A stretch of DNA of 31,743 nucleotides, from positions 1 to 31,743 of the forward strand of contig JAKCBB010000002.1 in NCBI GenBank assembly GCA_021839365.1. The letters run 5' to 3'. Position numbers and translations under genes: made by a program. Below the pieces are notes generated by a model. It ran no database searches. It was not told where the DNA came from and was given only the letters and a program-made list of their open reading frames with translations. This DNA is from a bacterium (GTDB taxonomy: Bacteria; Patescibacteriota; Minisyncoccia; UBA6257; Colwellbacteraceae). Below, in pieces: positions 15,310 to 31,743 of this stretch. The number at the start of each line of letters is the position of its first letter. Positions within the stretch are counted from its first letter, which is position 1.

Positions 15310-15384
15310 GCCCCCATCGTCTAGCGGTTAGGACAGCGCTCTTTCAAGGCGTAAACACCGGTTCGACTCCGGTTGGGGGCGCCA
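15310..15384 (+). tRNA. tRNA-Glu (TTC)
   Basis: Acceptor GCCCCCA/TGGGGGC, D-arm TCGTCTAGCGGTTAGGAC, anticodon loop CT-TTC-AA, T-loop GTTCGACTC, encoded CCA; 75 nt. Confidence 0.96.
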
Positions 15385-20839: not shown

Positions 20840-20925
20840 TGGTGGGCGAGGAGGGACTCGAACCCTCAAGGCCTTACGGCCACAACATTTTAAGTGTTGC
20901 GCGTATACCATTCCGCCACTCGCCC
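20840..20925 (-). tRNA. tRNA-Leu (TAA)
   Basis: GGGCGAGTGGCGGAATGGTATACGCG-CAACA-CTTAAAA-TGTTG-TGGCCGTAAGGCCTT-GAGGGTTCGAGTCCCTC-CTCGCCC-A-CCA; long variable arm; 86 nt. Confidence 0.96.
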
Positions 20926-25861: not shown

Positions 25862-26359
25862 TCACCTTCCCAGCTTGCCAAGCACTATTTCGTAAACCGC
25901 GATGCCGTAAGCGACCGAGACATTCAAAGATTCCTTTTTGCCGAACATCGGTATCTCGACAATCATATCAACCGCCTTAAGCACCGAGGGCGGCAAGCCC
26001 TTGACCTCGTTCCCCATAACCAGAGCCAATTTATCAAACTCCTTCTTTTTATATTTTACCTTATGGAAAGGAACCGCTGTTCCGCTTTGTTCCACGGCCA
26101 GAACTTTATACCCCTCTTTTTTAAGCCGGTTTATAAGCTTGACCGTTCCGGCGATTCTTCCCGGAACTTTCTCCCACTTGATATATTTCTCCGCGCCTAA
26201 AGCGGTTTTGACCAGGCGCGATTCCGGCCGGTTGTGCTTATCCACCGGTGCGGGAGTATAGCCGCATAAGTACAGCCTTTCCACGCCAGCCGCGTCTGAG
26301 GTCCTAAAAATCGAACCTACGTTATGCAGGCTTCGGATGTTATATAAAATCGCCACCAT
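25862..26359 (-). CDS. TrmH/SpoU family RNA 2'-O-methyltransferase
   Basis: NIRSLHNVGSIFRTSDAAG, KTALGAE, LVMGNEVKGL, IPMFGKKESLNVSVAYGI. Confidence 0.93.
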   Translation of the reverse strand: MVAILYNIRSLHNVGSIFRTSDAAGVERLYLCGYTPAPVDKHNRPESRLVKTALGAEKYIKWEKVPGRIAGTVKLINRLKKEGYKVLAVEQSGTAVPFHKVKYKKKEFDKLALVMGNEVKGLPPSVLKAVDMIVEIPMFGKKESLNVSVAYGIAVYEIVLGKLGR

Positions 26360-26367
26360 TAAAATAC

Positions 26368-26396
26368 AAAATAATATCTCTCAAAAGAACGGTCAA
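26368..26396 (-). promoter_or_regulatory. Putative promoter TTGACC-N17-TATTTT for the TrmH gene
   Basis: -35 at 26396-26391, -10 at 26373-26368, ATG 8 nt downstream. Confidence 0.45.
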
Positions 26397-26437
26397 ACAA
26401 TGAATAGTGCGCCCAGTAAACAAGGCAGTCGATAGAC

Positions 26438-26462
26438 GATTTAAGATCATCGTGCTTAAATC
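26438..26462 (+). promoter_or_regulatory. Inverted repeat just upstream of the NYN start (operator or leader hairpin)
   Basis: GATTTAAG-atcatcgtg-CTTAAATC, ending 5 nt before ATG 26468. Confidence 0.4.
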
Positions 26463-26467
26463 TAAAC

Positions 26468-27019
26468 ATGAAAACGGTGTACGTTTTTATAGATGCCTCT
26501 AATTTATGGGAGGCACAAAAAGCTAAAGGCAAGTTTTTTGATTACAAAAAGCTAAGAAATTTTATCGGAGAAAAATTCGACGCTTCCGATATTAAAATTT
26601 TTTATTACTCTTCTTACCCCGCTAATGGTACGCGCGATTATAATTTAGACGGGCGACACAAATTCTTTACTTTTCTCAAGAAGGGATTGGGTTTTGTTGT
26701 CAGAAAAAAAGAACTTAAACAGATAAGCATAACTACCGCGGAAGGTGAATCCATAGAAGAAAAAGGGAACATGGATGTCGAATTGACAATCGACGCTCTA
26801 CATCATTACAAAAAATATGACGTAGCTGTTTTATTCACAGGGGATTCCGACTTTCTAGCTTTAGTCACATATCTGCGCGCCAGAGAGAAAGATGTTTATA
26901 TATTTTCATCAAAAAATAACATATCGGAGGAATTGAGAACCGGCTCTAGCGGGTATTTTGATGTCCTAAAGATAGAAAACGACGTCTGGGGCAAGGATCT
27001 AAAACAAAGATCCAAGTAA
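26468..27019 (+). CDS. NYN domain (LabA/DUF88, PIN-like) putative RNase
   Basis: VFIDASNL, EKGNMDVELTID, LFTGDSDF..LV, acidic active-site residues intact; AT-rich relative to neighbours. Confidence 0.93.
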   Translation: MKTVYVFIDASNLWEAQKAKGKFFDYKKLRNFIGEKFDASDIKIFYYSSYPANGTRDYNLDGRHKFFTFLKKGLGFVVRKKELKQISITTAEGESIEEKGNMDVELTIDALHHYKKYDVAVLFTGDSDFLALVTYLRAREKDVYIFSSKNNISEELRTGSSGYFDVLKIENDVWGKDLKQRSK

Positions 27020-27047
27020 AAAAGCAACCCTCCGCTAGGAGGGTTGC
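27018..27047 (-). terminator. Rho-independent terminator on the minus strand
   Basis: GCAACCCTCC-TAGC-GGAGGGTTGC-TTTTTT: perfect 10-bp stem, U6 tract overlapping the NYN stop codon. Confidence 0.8.
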
Positions 27048-27094
27048 CCTTGGATGTAATGCCCTTTCGGTTCATGGAATAAACCGAAAGACAT
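27018..27094 (-). ncRNA. Candidate about 77-nt two-hairpin small RNA convergent with the NYN gene
   Basis: Lies between a TTGACC-N16-TATAAT promoter and the terminator; 5' hairpin CUUUCGGUU/AACCGAAAG (27064-27090) extendable by AUGU/GGCAU; 11-nt linker; terminator hairpin. Confidence 0.55.
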
Positions 27095-27098
27095 GATT

Positions 27099-27126
27099 AT
27101 TATACCCAACACCGACACGCGGTCAA
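27099..27126 (-). promoter_or_regulatory. Near-consensus sigma70 promoter TTGACC-N16-TATAAT
   Basis: -35 at 27126-27121, -10 at 27104-27099; points at the NYN 3' end with no long ORF before the terminator. Confidence 0.7.
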
Positions 27127-27151
27127 GGCGGACATGCTAGTGTTTCATTTT

Positions 27152-30100
27152 TTAATTTAACCCTAATTTCATATACCAATCGGTCCCGTTTTCCGAATAC
27201 CCGCCAAACGAGCATTTGTCGCAAACGGGATTAAGAGCTCTTCCGAATCCCGAACCGGAATCGCCGCCTGGATACGGATTGCCGTTCATAACGGCATTCT
27301 GCCAGGAGTTGTTGAAGTAACCCTGTAATTCCCCATAGTTTGCCACATCAAGCACGGCCCACCCGCCGTTATCGGCAGGCAATGTTATGGGAGAGGCAAA
27401 GGTAAACGTAACATCTTGCTGATCGGTAAGCGGGCTAACGTTCTTAATCACGCTCTCGCCGAGAAGATCGGCGAACGCCGGCGTTCCGGAAGAATCGGCG
27501 TATATGGATAATCTCAAATTAGTCGGCGCGTATCCTCCATACCAGTTCTGTCTGACTTTGACCGTAAACTTATCGAAGCTTAAGGCGGTCGATGAGGATA
27601 TTTTCTGAAAACTCGCCGAATCCGGCGCAGAATAATTCTGGTTTATATCCAGTGTCCCGAAGCTCTTGCCCCAGCTTCCGTCCCATTGATTCTGTTCTAT
27701 AACAAGATCCGCGGTTGGATATGTCCAGGTCGAAGTTTCCGCTATCGACGGCAAACCGAACGCATCCTTCGCGCGCAAGCCTATGACAAAATCATCTCCC
27801 GTGTTAACAAACCGCGAATATCTGTAACTCATACGGCCGGGATCGGTAAAATCAGCCCTCGGTTCCGGAGAAAGCGCCTGCCAGAGAGAATCATCCAGGC
27901 CGCCCGACGGCGATATATTTATCTCATAACTTGTCGAGTTCAAAATTCCGTCGCTGTCGCTCGCCGGATCCCAGCTGACGGCAAGTGCGGAGTTTTCCGG
28001 CTTGAGTTGAGTTACAAAAGCGGATGCAAAAACAGGCGCGGCGTGAAGGTTTTGAACCTCCTCGAGACTCAGATCCCGCAGAGGATAGTGGGCGTGATCC
28101 GCTGCCACAAGCCTGAACTTTCTTTCCCCGAAAACGTTGGGATCGTGATCATAATACGAAACCGTAATAAAGCTGCTCGTGGAAAGATTTAGATTTGAGG
28201 CCGGAAGCGCGGACGGAAGCAATAGATGTAAGCCGCTCTCGGCCTGAAGAGAAATATCGGTGGCATAGGGACCGTAATCGCAGAATCCGTTGGGAAAAAT
28301 CACGGCTGGGGCGGAGATATCCGATCCTCCGCAACTTACGTATTTTATATCGAAAGTGCTTGTGCCGGCCTGGAAATACTCCGACTTATCCGCGTCGCTG
28401 TTCAAAGAAAAGGCCAAAAGTCTCCAGTTGGTTTTCGTTCCGGCCGTTCCGCTCCAAAGAGGAGGTATAAACGGATCGTTTTGATAAAACGCGTCAATAA
28501 GATACGCATCGGCCCCGCTCCTCGGATCGCGATAAAAATAGAGACCGGACAAGAAACTCGGCGCGCTGGCGCTCGATGTCGCTTCGGCAAGCACCGTTCC
28601 ACCCTCATCCAAAGCCGACACCCTGAACTCATAGTTTCTCCCGACCTCGTTAATCCGTAACGCGGTGCCGGTGGTCGATATCAAAGAAGCAACCGAATCC
28701 GAAGTTCTGTCGTCTCCCCAAACCGTCTCGCCGGCGGAAGTCGATGTGGAGAGTTGAACGGTATAAAAGACAGCCGTACCAATGGCGGTACTGGTGGATA
28801 ATACATCGCTCGACGAGGCTTGAAGAGGTATAAAATCATCCCAACTCAAAGAAATCTTAAGATTGTCGGGATTATAGCTCGCGAAGAAATTGGTAATAGC
28901 CGGCAATGCCGCTGTTGATGTCGCCGTCGAAGCCGGAGTTGTAGTTGCGGTTGAGGTCGCGGTAGACGTGGAATTCGCATCGCTAGAAATACAAACCGAT
29001 GAAAACGCCGCTGGGCTGGGACATATTTGAATCTCGAAATCGGAGAAATTGTCTCCGCTATCCGCAAACTTCCCGTTCACGATCTTCCTTTCAAGACTCT
29101 GCCCGCCCGCCGGCTCCGGTGCGCAATTCCCTCTGCAATCGCCGGCCTCTCCCCATCCGACTTTATCGACAACCTCGTGATTGGGATTTTTTATGGCCAG
29201 AGAATTGTCGCCGGCTATGCCGTAAGTCGTCATAATATCACCGCTTATGCCGCCGTCCGGATTGGCGATAACCAGAAAATTCCCCGGTTGAATCATCCTG
29301 CCGTTAAATAATTCCGCCTTGGCAAAGGTTGAAAACTCGGCAGCGCTTTTCGTCTTTTTCATAACCGACCAGCCGGTTAAGTCCACGCTGGAATCGTTCG
29401 GGTTATAAATCTCTACAAATTCATCCTTAGTGCCGCTAACCGACGCCAACTGCACCTCTGTAATCAGAAGCTTTTTGTAGGCAACCCCGCTGCTTGTCGC
29501 GGTGCTCGTGGAATTATTATTTTCCGTATTAGTCTGCTGCGCCGCGGATACCGTGCCGCCTCCCCCGCCAGTCGGCGGGGTGTACGCTTGCCCGTTTTCT
29601 CGTTTCGGAGTTCCGCCTACAGCCGTTGAGGTGTGCCATCCTACGCTTCCCGAATTTCTTTCCATTGTCCTGCGCGACACCGGATCCCCCGCCGGCCACC
29701 CGCTTGCGCCATATACGCTGTCGGACAGCAAACATCCGCCGTTAAAAAGCTTTAGATCCGTTCCGCTGTTAACCAGGCTGCCGGTGTACGCCATATCAGC
29801 CTTAACGCCAGGTATGGAATCAACATCCGTCCGCTCAAGAAGATAAAACCCTCCGGGCGCGACAACGGCTCCGGCGGGCACGGTTATTTTTATATGCCCG
29901 TCTCTGCTTAAAACCCGCCAACCGGAAATATCGACCGCCGCGGATGAGATATTTTTCAATTCGATCCACTCGTCGTTCGCACCGCTTACGCTCCCCATCC
30001 ACGCAATCTCGTTAAGGATAACACCCGGATTGGCCAACTGGTCCTGAATAGAAAACGCACAGGAAACTTCCGCTTCCGGTTTCGTCTGAGCCGGAGGATT

Positions 30101-31743
30101 ATTGTCTGCCTTCGGCAAAGACAGCTTCGCCGGAGCGGTAGACGATGCGGGCGGCGCGACGTTTTTCTCCTCCCCGGGCGAGGATTCGGGCTTTGAAGGT
30201 TCAGGAGCGATTTTGTTAGCCTCGCCCGGGGTCGGTAACGCGGCAATCCATCTGCCGCCTGCAAGTTGGAGGGAGTTCCCGTCGCCGTCCGCTCCCTGAT
30301 CGGAAAAATAAGCAATCTTATCCAAAAGGACATCTCCGTTAAAAACGGATATTTCTCCGGAAGAATTATTTAAGGAAACAACGCTGTCCGCCAGCGTGCC
30401 TGAATAATTCGGAAACATGTTTTGAAAACTCCACGGATCGTCCGCTATCACCCCGTAAGCGCCGGGCGATAAAACAGAGGCGCCTGATTTTTTAATAAGA
30501 TGATTGGAACCGTTTACCTTGAGAATCAAAGAAGATAAATCGATTTTTTCTTTGTCGTTATTAAAAACCTCTATCCATTCTTTTCCGGGGTTCCCGCCTT
30601 TTGGATCATACATAATCTCCGTGATCCGAAGGGCGTATTTTTTATTCTTCTTATTTATCTCTTGTTGCGCGCTTGACGACGCCGCTGGGGCAGGCGGTAC
30701 GTTTACTCCGGTCTCGTCCGCCGCAGGCAGATTCACGGTCTGCACAAGCTTCCCTCCGCCATTCCCGACAATCTGATTAAAAGCGGAAATCGCAGTATCC
30801 TTAACCGCTCCGGCGAAATCGGCAAACGATGAAATTGCCTGTCCGATTTTCGACTTCGGCTCGACATCGAACGACTTCGCGTAAACCGGATCGTTTTGCG
30901 CCTTGGCAACCTCCCTGAAGAATAAATCTATAACTCCTGCGGAATACTGGACGGATTTTACAGAGAGAACATTCCAGTAAGAGGATTTAATTAAGTCGTT
31001 AGTAATATCTATATTTACAGCATAATCCGAGACGCCAAAGCCACTATTAGATTTTCGTGCAACATAGTGTTTGTTAGAGCCGTCACCATCGTAAAAATAA
31101 TAATGTTTATCGATTATTTCTGCTCTAGAAATAGACAATTCTGGATTAGAATATCCAGAATTTATTCCTATAGTATTATTGCTGTAGTAATGAGAGTTTG
31201 TATATTTAGCCAAAGATCCGAAATATAAGTCAATATTATCCACTTTTATTGGCTGTAAATTTAAAGTTTTGGTTTCTAAGTCACCATCTGGAGCGTTAAG
31301 ATTAAATCTGTCAGCATAAAGCTCATACGAATCATTTCCGGGATGAGGATCGTTGCGCGTGTGCGCAGGAACGGACATGTCCTCGAGAAGATGTAAAATA
31401 TGACCGAGCGCGAACATCGCCCCATTCTTGTCGCCGTTAATATAAAGATTTACCGCCTTCTGCCAGGTGAAATTTGTTTCGGCGGAAATTTTTGATATAT
31501 CTCTCCGCTCTATCGCCGTAAGAACCGAACCTATCGTCTCCGGCACCTTGTAGACCAAACCGTTCTGGGCGGACGGATTCTGCGACCATTCCTTGGCGCT
31601 TAGCCATTTTCCCGGAATCGGTATCGCCGCGTTTATGGCGGGATCATAAGTTATCCCGCGGTTATTGATCGGATCGTAAAAATGATCCATTGAGCGCGGG
31701 ATGTCGTCCTCCCGTCTCGAGCCATCGATAAGGAAATTGGCGT
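27152..31743 (-). CDS. Giant surface protein (>1529 aa, 5'-truncated): Zn-dependent phospholipase C/P1-nuclease-like domain, 3 lamin-tail domains, Ser/Thr linkers, Fn3-like C-terminal regions
   Basis: Frame is open beyond ATG 31690 to the window edge (ANFLIDGSRREDDIPRSMDHFYDP). PLC motifs HFYDP and LGHILHLLEDMSVPAHTRNDPH..YE. LTD motifs ITEIMYDP..EWIEVFN, LNEIAW..DEWIELKN, ITEVQL..DEFVEIYN. Fn3-like ISLSWDD and LAVSWDPASDSDG..YEI. Confidence 0.85.
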   Translation of the reverse strand, partial: ANFLIDGSRREDDIPRSMDHFYDPINNRGITYDPAINAAIPIPGKWLSAKEWSQNPSAQNGLVYKVPETIGSVLTAIERRDISKISAETNFTWQKAVNLYINGDKNGAMFALGHILHLLEDMSVPAHTRNDPHPGNDSYELYADRFNLNAPDGDLETKTLNLQPIKVDNIDLYFGSLAKYTNSHYYSNNTIGINSGYSNPELSISRAEIIDKHYYFYDGDGSNKHYVARKSNSGFGVSDYAVNIDITNDLIKSSYWNVLSVKSVQYSAGVIDLFFREVAKAQNDPVYAKSFDVEPKSKIGQAISSFADFAGAVKDTAISAFNQIVGNGGGKLVQTVNLPAADETGVNVPPAPAASSSAQQEINKKNKKYALRITEIMYDPKGGNPGKEWIEVFNNDKEKIDLSSLILKVNGSNHLIKKSGASVLSPGAYGVIADDPWSFQNMFPNYSGTLADSVVSLNNSSGEISVFNGDVLLDKIAYFSDQGADGDGNSLQLAGGRWIAALPTPGEANKIAPEPSKPESSPGEEKNVAPPASSTAPAKLSLPKADNNPPAQTKPEAEVSCAFSIQDQLANPGVILNEIAWMGSVSGANDEWIELKNISSAAVDISGWRVLSRDGHIKITVPAGAVVAPGGFYLLERTDVDSIPGVKADMAYTGSLVNSGTDLKLFNGGCLLSDSVYGASGWPAGDPVSRRTMERNSGSVGWHTSTAVGGTPKRENGQAYTPPTGGGGGTVSAAQQTNTENNNSTSTATSSGVAYKKLLITEVQLASVSGTKDEFVEIYNPNDSSVDLTGWSVMKKTKSAAEFSTFAKAELFNGRMIQPGNFLVIANPDGGISGDIMTTYGIAGDNSLAIKNPNHEVVDKVGWGEAGDCRGNCAPEPAGGQSLERKIVNGKFADSGDNFSDFEIQICPSPAAFSSVCISSDANSTSTATSTATTTPASTATSTAALPAITNFFASYNPDNLKISLSWDDFIPLQASSSDVLSTSTAIGTAVFYTVQLSTSTSAGETVWGDDRTSDSVASLISTTGTALRINEVGRNYEFRVSALDEGGTVLAEATSSASAPSFLSGLYFYRDPRSGADAYLIDAFYQNDPFIPPLWSGTAGTKTNWRLLAFSLNSDADKSEYFQAGTSTFDIKYVSCGGSDISAPAVIFPNGFCDYGPYATDISLQAESGLHLLLPSALPASNLNLSTSSFITVSYYDHDPNVFGERKFRLVAADHAHYPLRDLSLEEVQNLHAAPVFASAFVTQLKPENSALAVSWDPASDSDGILNSTSYEINISPSGGLDDSLWQALSPEPRADFTDPGRMSYRYSRFVNTGDDFVIGLRAKDAFGLPSIAETSTWTYPTADLVIEQNQWDGSWGKSFGTLDINQNYSAPDSASFQKISSSTALSFDKFTVKVRQNWYGGYAPTNLRLSIYADSSGTPAFADLLGESVIKNVSPLTDQQDVTFTFASPITLPADNGGWAVLDVANYGELQGYFNNSWQNAVMNGNPYPGGDSGSGFGRALNPVCDKCSFGGYSENGTDWYMKLGLN

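Follow-up and report, generated by a model that had tools for sequence, protein, structure and literature searches.

Type III toxin-antitoxin systems (ToxIN, CptIN, and TenpIN) pair an endoribonuclease with a dedicated structured RNA, which consists of tandem direct repeats and precedes the toxin gene within one operon. This RNA inhibits the toxin protein by binding to it and is in turn processed by the toxin. ToxN-type toxins have a fold other than the NYN/PIN-like one. In type I systems with convergent, 3'-overlapping RNAs, such as txpA/RatA and bsrG/SR4 of Bacillus subtilis, a small and strongly promoted RNA lies over the 3' end of a potentially harmful gene, which encodes a small (<60 aa) hydrophobic peptide; the antitoxin RNA of type I systems acts by base-pairing with the mRNA of the toxin. 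Exceptions to this peptide rule are the type I pairs SymE/SymR (PMC1891008) and RalR/RalA (PMC4041452), which have nuclease or RNA-cleavage-associated toxins. Among NYN proteins, the closest described relatives are the LabA-like proteins (PF01936, COG1432; structure 2qip, VPA0982) and a CRISPR-associated NYN RNase from Bacteroides fragilis, a Mn-dependent, sequence-nonspecific single-stranded RNA (ssRNA) endonuclease (bioRxiv 10.1101/2024.04.08.588522). None of these NYN proteins has been reported with a dedicated convergent small RNA, and we found no paper on an NYN-small RNA pair in the literature searched.

Here, we analyzed a 31,743-nt stretch of DNA (the window) from an ultra-small bacterium of the CPR (Patescibacteria), in which an NYN gene and a convergent small RNA gene together make up an inserted cassette. 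Like the type III systems, this cassette combines a predicted RNase with a dedicated structured RNA, and the conserved single-stranded linker of this RNA would be compatible with direct protein binding. A preliminary description of the locus had likened it to the type III and AbiF-type systems, but the architecture does not support membership of either: the RNA is single copy without tandem repeats, has its own promoter, and does not precede the nuclease gene in a shared operon but lies downstream of and convergent to it. The resemblance to the convergent type I loci lies in a small, strongly promoted RNA over the 3' end of a potentially harmful gene, in a compact, two-part, and accessory locus, and in the availability of RNase III for a duplex. 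Unlike those loci, however, the cassette encodes a 183-aa soluble NYN nuclease instead of a small hydrophobic peptide, and its RNA has an invariant single-stranded motif that is not needed for cis-antisense pairing. Overall, the cassette does not fit the type III architecture and fits type I only loosely. The protein shares its fold and acidic active-site residues with the LabA-like NYN proteins, and the Mn-dependent ssRNA cleavage of the B. fragilis enzyme is the chemistry that we would expect of it.

The NYN gene encodes a predicted single-stranded RNA endonuclease

The nuclease gene (26468-27019, plus strand, 183 aa) matches PF01936 (E 4e-23) with a score of 82.9 bits, where the curated cut-off is 24.2. 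The preliminary description had noted an AT-rich gene with intact acidic residues that opposes its neighbors, and all three points held: the gene has a GC content of 36.8%, compared to 48.6% for the remainder of the window, and it is flanked by spoU (25862-26359) and a giant open reading frame (ORF) of at least 1512 aa (27152-31690), both on the minus strand. Six acidic positions (D9, D103, E105, D109, D126, and D128) are each conserved in at least 90% of 91 NYN orthologs. The AlphaFold2 model of the protein (pLDDT 94, pTM 0.89) predicts a PIN-like alpha/beta fold that carries these conserved acidic, putatively metal-binding residues. In Foldseek, the best structural matches of this model were the LabA-like structure 2qip (E 1e-9) and the NYN domain of MARF1 (E 2e-4), and 2qip was also recovered by a sequence profile search. 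We infer, from characterized relatives only, that the protein is a metal-dependent ssRNA endonuclease. An unrestrained copy could plausibly be harmful, because its bacterial NYN relative cuts ssRNA nonspecifically (bioRxiv 10.1101/2024.04.08.588522).

A candidate promoter for the nuclease gene (26433-26461, plus strand; TAGACG, 17-nt spacer, TGc-TTAAAT), read from the sequence, ends 6 nt 5' of the ATG. Given that the -10 box lies so close to the start codon, the NYN mRNA is probably leaderless. A -10-like hexamer at 5-8 nt 5' of the NYN start was seen in 45 out of 135 cassettes, compared to 15-18 at control offsets; this position suggests a leaderless NYN mRNA in about one third of cassettes, including that of the window.

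The same genome encodes a second NYN-domain protein (contig C12, 11217-11669), which has 111 bits to PF01936 and is distant from the one in the window. We found no small RNA of the same type near this paralog, which argues that the RNA is specific to the window-type NYN subfamily.

A 77-nt structured RNA gene lies on the opposite strand

The small RNA gene (27018-27094, minus strand) has a predicted length of 77 nt and scores 95 bits with a covariance model (R1) that we built from four sequences: the window RNA and the RNAs of three NYN orthologs from the same taxonomic family. Its sigma-70-type promoter (27099-27126, minus strand) has 11 out of 12 consensus matches, with TTGACC (27126-27121) and TATAAT (27104-27099) separated by a 16-nt spacer. 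The RNA starts with a 5' hairpin (27059-27094) with a variable loop, in which 6 out of 14 pairs are changed on both sides somewhere in the set of 97 distinct sequences, followed by an 11-nt single-stranded linker, UACAUCCAAGG (27048-27058). It ends in an intrinsic terminator (27018-27047), which consists of a perfect 10-bp stem capped by a 4-nt loop (27047-27024) and a U6 tract (27023-27018); 4 out of 10 terminator pairs show double-sided changes, and 99.3% of the terminator-stem cells in the alignment pair. The U6 tract overlaps the NYN stop codon (27017-27019). The predicted fold of the RNA has a free energy of -39.1 kcal/mol (z = -6.65), which was equalled by none of 200 shuffles. The promoter, the linker, the terminator, the position of the U6 tract on the stop codon, and the length of about 77 nt had all been described beforehand, and each was confirmed at these coordinates. 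The hairpin was also present where expected (27094-27059), but with 14 pairs and one bulge it is slightly longer than the 9-13 bp that had been claimed.

The same RNA unit was found at 173 other loci. In the three close NYN orthologs from the same family, a matching RNA element lies directly 3' of the stop codon, with compensatory changes in its stems. A search of species-representative genomes with the linker pattern and R1 returned at least 118 loci, of which 99 (97 distinct sequences) were aligned. In this alignment, 96.2% of stem cells hold a standard pair, compared to 87.4% after shuffling and about 50% when the partners are slid. We counted 207 cells that were changed on both sides, compared to 60 after shuffling, and none of 500 shuffles reached as high a count. 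The number of pairs with double-sided changes discriminates less (10 out of 24, compared to 8.9 after shuffling, with 99 out of 500 shuffles as high). G·U pairs make up 15.8% of stem cells, and 96.3% of cells pair when read on the minus strand, compared to 81.1% on the NYN-sense strand; the RNA strand is therefore the one opposite NYN. While the stems covary, the ACAUC and AG of the linker are invariant in all 68 distinct RNAs from loci that were picked by their protein. The promoter is kept at a fixed distance, with at least 5 out of 6 matches to the -10 box in 147 out of 173 loci and to the -35 box in 127 out of 173. Each part of the RNA is either conserved or a covarying stem, leaving no variable, guide-like segment. 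As had been anticipated, homologs thus retain the reverse promoter, both hairpins, and the covarying stems. Judged by these sequence patterns, the 77-nt unit is a real structured RNA gene on the strand opposite NYN.

Rfam 15 contained no match for this RNA at gathering or permissive thresholds; the best sub-threshold match was Phe_leader, with 24.6 bits against a cut-off of 55. Together with the lack of a paper on such a pair in the literature searched, this agrees with the earlier remark that no named NYN-linked RNA antitoxin family is known. We also considered two other identities for the unit. It is not a small peptide gene, since neither the frame nor the start codon is conserved: the window frame gives 19 aa, a copy in another genome (G018) uses a different frame (frames were assigned by eye), and many starts would be TTG, ATA, or GAG. 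A housekeeping RNA was ruled out by the presence of the NYN-RNA pair in just 2 out of 400 phylum-wide genomes. The only window matches to Rfam at the gathering threshold were two tRNA genes (15310-15381, plus strand; 20843-20925, minus strand). Elsewhere in the genome, a weak R1 match of 22.5 bits (contig C2, 24297-24372, minus strand) has a linker-like CACUUCCAAG before a terminator; no NYN gene lies near it, and it is probably due to chance.

Just upstream of the small-RNA -35 box, 80 out of 173 cassettes carry a DnaA-box-like 9-mer (at most one mismatch), as TGTGGATAA in 49 and as TTATCCACA in 31, where about 2 per orientation would be expected by chance. The 9-mer lies 44-57 nt upstream of the RNA 5' end (loci L034-L235), and it is absent from the corresponding region of the window copy (27127-27151). 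This pattern suggests that DnaA may control the small-RNA promoter in many copies.

No RNA sequencing runs containing the window genome were found. Three metatranscriptomic libraries, each from a different study, contained relatives of the cassette in the form of contigs that run across NYN and the RNA with a word depth of at most 110; these contigs reveal neither strand nor ends, and they may include DNA carry-over.

The RNA is an obligate companion of the nuclease gene

We examined the linkage between the two genes from both sides. On the protein side, we took the best 80 metagenome loci, whose proteins are 67-82% identical to the window NYN. The RNA was convergent to NYN in all 78 informative loci and followed directly after the stop codon in 77 of them; the remaining two loci sit at a contig edge with no room for the RNA. 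None of the 78 informative loci had NYN without the RNA.

On the RNA side, at least 90 of the at least 118 loci had a convergent ORF of 140-260 aa whose end is no more than 30 nt, and mostly no more than 5 nt, away from the RNA. Of the 90 such ORFs among the RNA-motif matches listed, 89 encode proteins that are 53-77% identical to the window NYN. Another 28 loci among the matches listed failed this ORF filter: 8 were cut by a contig end, 4 had an intact NYN that the filter had overlooked, 10 had an intact RNA next to an NYN that was 5'-truncated or frameshifted, and 6 had room for NYN but lacked it (one of these retains the last 15 NYN codons). Thus, among the matches listed, about 110 informative loci comprise about 94 with an intact NYN, 10 with a decayed NYN, and 6 with none. 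The same states occur within the genus of the window genome. One congener (G003) has a broken NYN beside an RNA that is intact at 93 bits, a second (G002) has a lone RNA with its own promoter (TTGACG-16-TACCAT) between an RNase J-like gene and trpS, and both NYN and the RNA are absent from the other two (G001 and G004). The linkage is obligate and one-sided: the RNA outlives the nuclease, and the nuclease without the RNA was never seen in the 78 informative loci. Together with the conserved promoter, hairpins, and covariation, this linkage corroborates the earlier proposal of a two-part module whose RNA forms a convergent transcription unit of its own.

An accessory and probably mobile cassette

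At the window locus, the cassette is an insertion of about 790 bp between the start of spoU and the stop codon of the giant gene (26360-27151), and it contains exactly NYN and the RNA. In all four genomes of the same genus (G001-G004), this site is empty: the spoU start and the giant-gene stop are only 14-60 nt apart, with neither NYN nor the RNA between them. The window genome itself is an assembly of 535 kb in 44 contigs (91% complete), of which the window is contig C7. Close NYN orthologs (E ≤1e-45) were found in 2 out of 400 genomes drawn evenly across the phylum and in 3 out of 60 relatives. Across 83 cassettes, per-column nucleotide conservation is 0.63-0.90 from the NYN start to the RNA 5' end and collapses beyond these borders. 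The flanking genes are diverse, with 149 Pfam families in 148 proteins; restriction-modification is the commonest category (~10-15% of flanking genes), followed by tgt, and the insertion sites share no common target gene.

The cassette contains no recombinase. Direct repeats of host sequence, 26-137 nt long, surround 14 out of 113 cassettes (12%; among them L188, L046, L037, L194, L230, and L070, the last being the copy in G003), compared to 0 out of 333 mismatched controls. These bracketing repeats point to what may be an unusual, recombinase-free insertion mechanism. At the window locus, we found neither a target-site duplication nor a fossil gene stub. An imperfect, AT-rich inverted repeat of 19 nt (74% complementary) lies exactly at the insertion borders (26358-26376 and 27138-27156); it is weak and may be due to chance.

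We also asked what the history of the copies can tell. The GC content of NYN correlates with that of the host (r = 0.8) and is on average ~6.6 percentage points lower, so the copies have long been resident and are no recent transfers. A phage-borne cassette was rejected, as the motif occurred in none of 2.9 million viral contigs. A phylogenetic proof of transfer was not obtained either: the NYN tree resolves poorly, and a single clade for the three Colwellbacteria copies was not rejected (AU test, p = 0.665). The case for mobility therefore rests on genome positions and not on phylogeny. The best reading of these patterns is that NYN and the RNA form a rare, accessory, horizontally mobile, and self-contained two-gene cassette.

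Several individual copies deserve mention. A complete CPR-type NYN-RNA cassette (L069) lies on a 404,760-bp contig of a Bacteroidota isolate assembly (Niastella vici DJ57 contig14, NZ_LVYD01000041.1), and its NYN groups with a Nomurabacteria copy; either the contig belongs to a CPR bacterium that was co-cultured with the isolate or contaminated it, or the cassette was transferred out of the phylum. One metagenome-assembled genome (isolate C19_concoct.bin.47) has two near-identical cassettes (L065 and L131) on separate contigs, so that more than one cassette can be present in a genome. In the window, the left arm of the cassette has a promoter-like site toward spoU (26368-26396, minus strand; TTGACC-17-TATTTT, 9 out of 12 matches). 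We speculate that this site could drive spoU in place of giant-gene read-through, which the insertion with its terminator would block.

How the RNA may act on the nuclease

Our preferred reading, to which we give roughly even credence, is that the cassette is a mobile module resembling a toxin-antitoxin system, with the RNA restraining the NYN RNase through its mRNA, its protein, or both. The RNA would be an antidote or brake of the nuclease, and we favor this role because the RNA survives the loss of NYN (16 loci), but none of the 78 informative loci had an NYN that lacked the RNA. A failure of the RNA supply, for instance after loss of the cassette, under stress, or upon infection, would set the nuclease free.

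Such restraint could follow two routes. In the first, the RNA would be fully complementary to whatever 3' UTR the NYN mRNA has, and the duplex would be cut by RNase III; in a variant of this route, the two colliding convergent transcription units would interfere with each other. The whole RNA gene sits where the NYN 3' UTR would run, and the RNA reaches into the stop codon with its 3' end. When the terminator hairpin is read on the NYN-sense strand, CCUUGGAUG comes after it instead of a U-tract, so NYN transcripts would be forced into the RNA gene and the RNA would be antisense to any NYN 3' UTR; the antisense overlap past the stop codon is assumed. The window genome encodes RNase III, and Hfq was not found in it. 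In the second route, the NYN protein would directly bind the invariant single-stranded ACAUCCAAG linker, which would serve as inhibitor or decoy. Cis-antisense pairing is kept whatever the sequence, and the invariance of the linker is therefore not explained by such pairing. The linker would have to be read by something sequence-specific, and the most obvious reader is the NYN protein.

We also searched for other partners of the linker. In a genome-wide duplex scan for a trans target, only the cis-antisense site stood out (-35.5 kcal/mol, compared to -23 kcal/mol or weaker elsewhere). A pairing of the linker with the NMDV codons had a consistent position in 48 out of 68 loci, yet at -12.4 kcal/mol it did not stand out from that of shuffled linkers (-11.8 kcal/mol), and we rejected it. 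A resemblance to the 790 loop of 16S rRNA was a by-eye impression that did not surface in the scan.

Some observations weigh against our preferred reading. The intact orphan RNAs in 16 species could point to a separate function of the RNA, and NYN shows unusually high conservation for a toxin, at 63-77% identity across candidate divisions of the phylum. The host-tracking GC content of NYN and a tree that leaves a single origin of the three Colwellbacteria copies unrejected count against it as well. A more specific form of the restraint reading, which we offer tentatively and hold to be doubtful, is that the cassette represents a new class of RNA-antitoxin system. Here, a lone, non-repeated RNA would bind NYN directly and silence it through the invariant single-stranded ACAUCCAAG, its supply would be wired to DnaA in nearly half of the cassettes, and release of the nuclease would follow the replication state or the loss of the cassette.

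Alternative explanations

The alternative that survives best, though we consider it unlikely, is that the RNA works together with NYN, as a cofactor, scaffold, activator, or dedicated substrate, in a ribonucleoprotein such as a defense effector or an RNA-processing unit. The invariant single-stranded linker argues for recognition by a protein, and NYN and the RNA are both very highly conserved. A role in defense would also be in keeping with the share of restriction-modification among the flanking genes (~10-15%) and with a weak match of the window NYN to the NYN model of PADLOC (E 9e-11). However, the RNA stays intact beside a broken or deleted NYN and the reverse was never seen; because of this asymmetric persistence, a mutually dependent NYN-RNA particle is hard to square with the data. 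The lack of a variable, guide-like segment in the RNA likewise speaks against a working partner.

We regard it as improbable that the cassette is a selfish mobile element in which NYN is a DNA-acting mobility nuclease and the RNA merely tunes its expression. Such an element would account for the insertion at the window locus, for the many unrelated sites that are occupied despite the lack of a recombinase, and for the 26-137-nt host duplications that bracket 12% of copies. Nevertheless, the characterized NYN domains cut RNA (bioRxiv 10.1101/2024.04.08.588522; the structural match to MARF1 agrees with this), the insertion sites have no target gene in common, the window locus shows no duplication, and the cassette was not found in viral contigs.

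Finally, the small-RNA -35 box follows 25 nt after the end of the giant gene on the same strand, and transcripts of the giant gene therefore probably stop at the small-RNA terminator, but the idea that the hairpins are nothing other than its 3' UTR and terminator, or a bidirectional terminator, next to a chance promoter can be dismissed as highly implausible: the unit accompanies NYN and not the giant gene (four congeners have the giant gene without the unit), a near-consensus promoter is found at a fixed distance in most of the 173 loci although their upstream genes are unrelated, and the RNA in G002 stands alone with its TTGACG-16-TACCAT promoter.

Significance of the NYN-RNA cassette

In the tiny genomes of CPR bacteria, very few regulatory RNAs and toxin-antitoxin systems have been characterized. 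The RNA of the cassette is structured, covaries strongly, is spread across the phylum, and lies outside Rfam; it is a new RNA family, and it is the obligate partner of a nuclease family about whose roles in bacteria little is known. The way in which the cassette moves is of interest in itself, given that it lacks a recombinase and that long host-sequence duplications often lie on either side of it. At ~0.75 kb, the module is portable to E. coli and hence easily testable. If the RNA does restrain the nuclease, as in our preferred reading, the RNA-controlled toxin systems would gain a toxin fold and an architecture that are both new, and the cassette would provide the first function for a LabA-like NYN protein.
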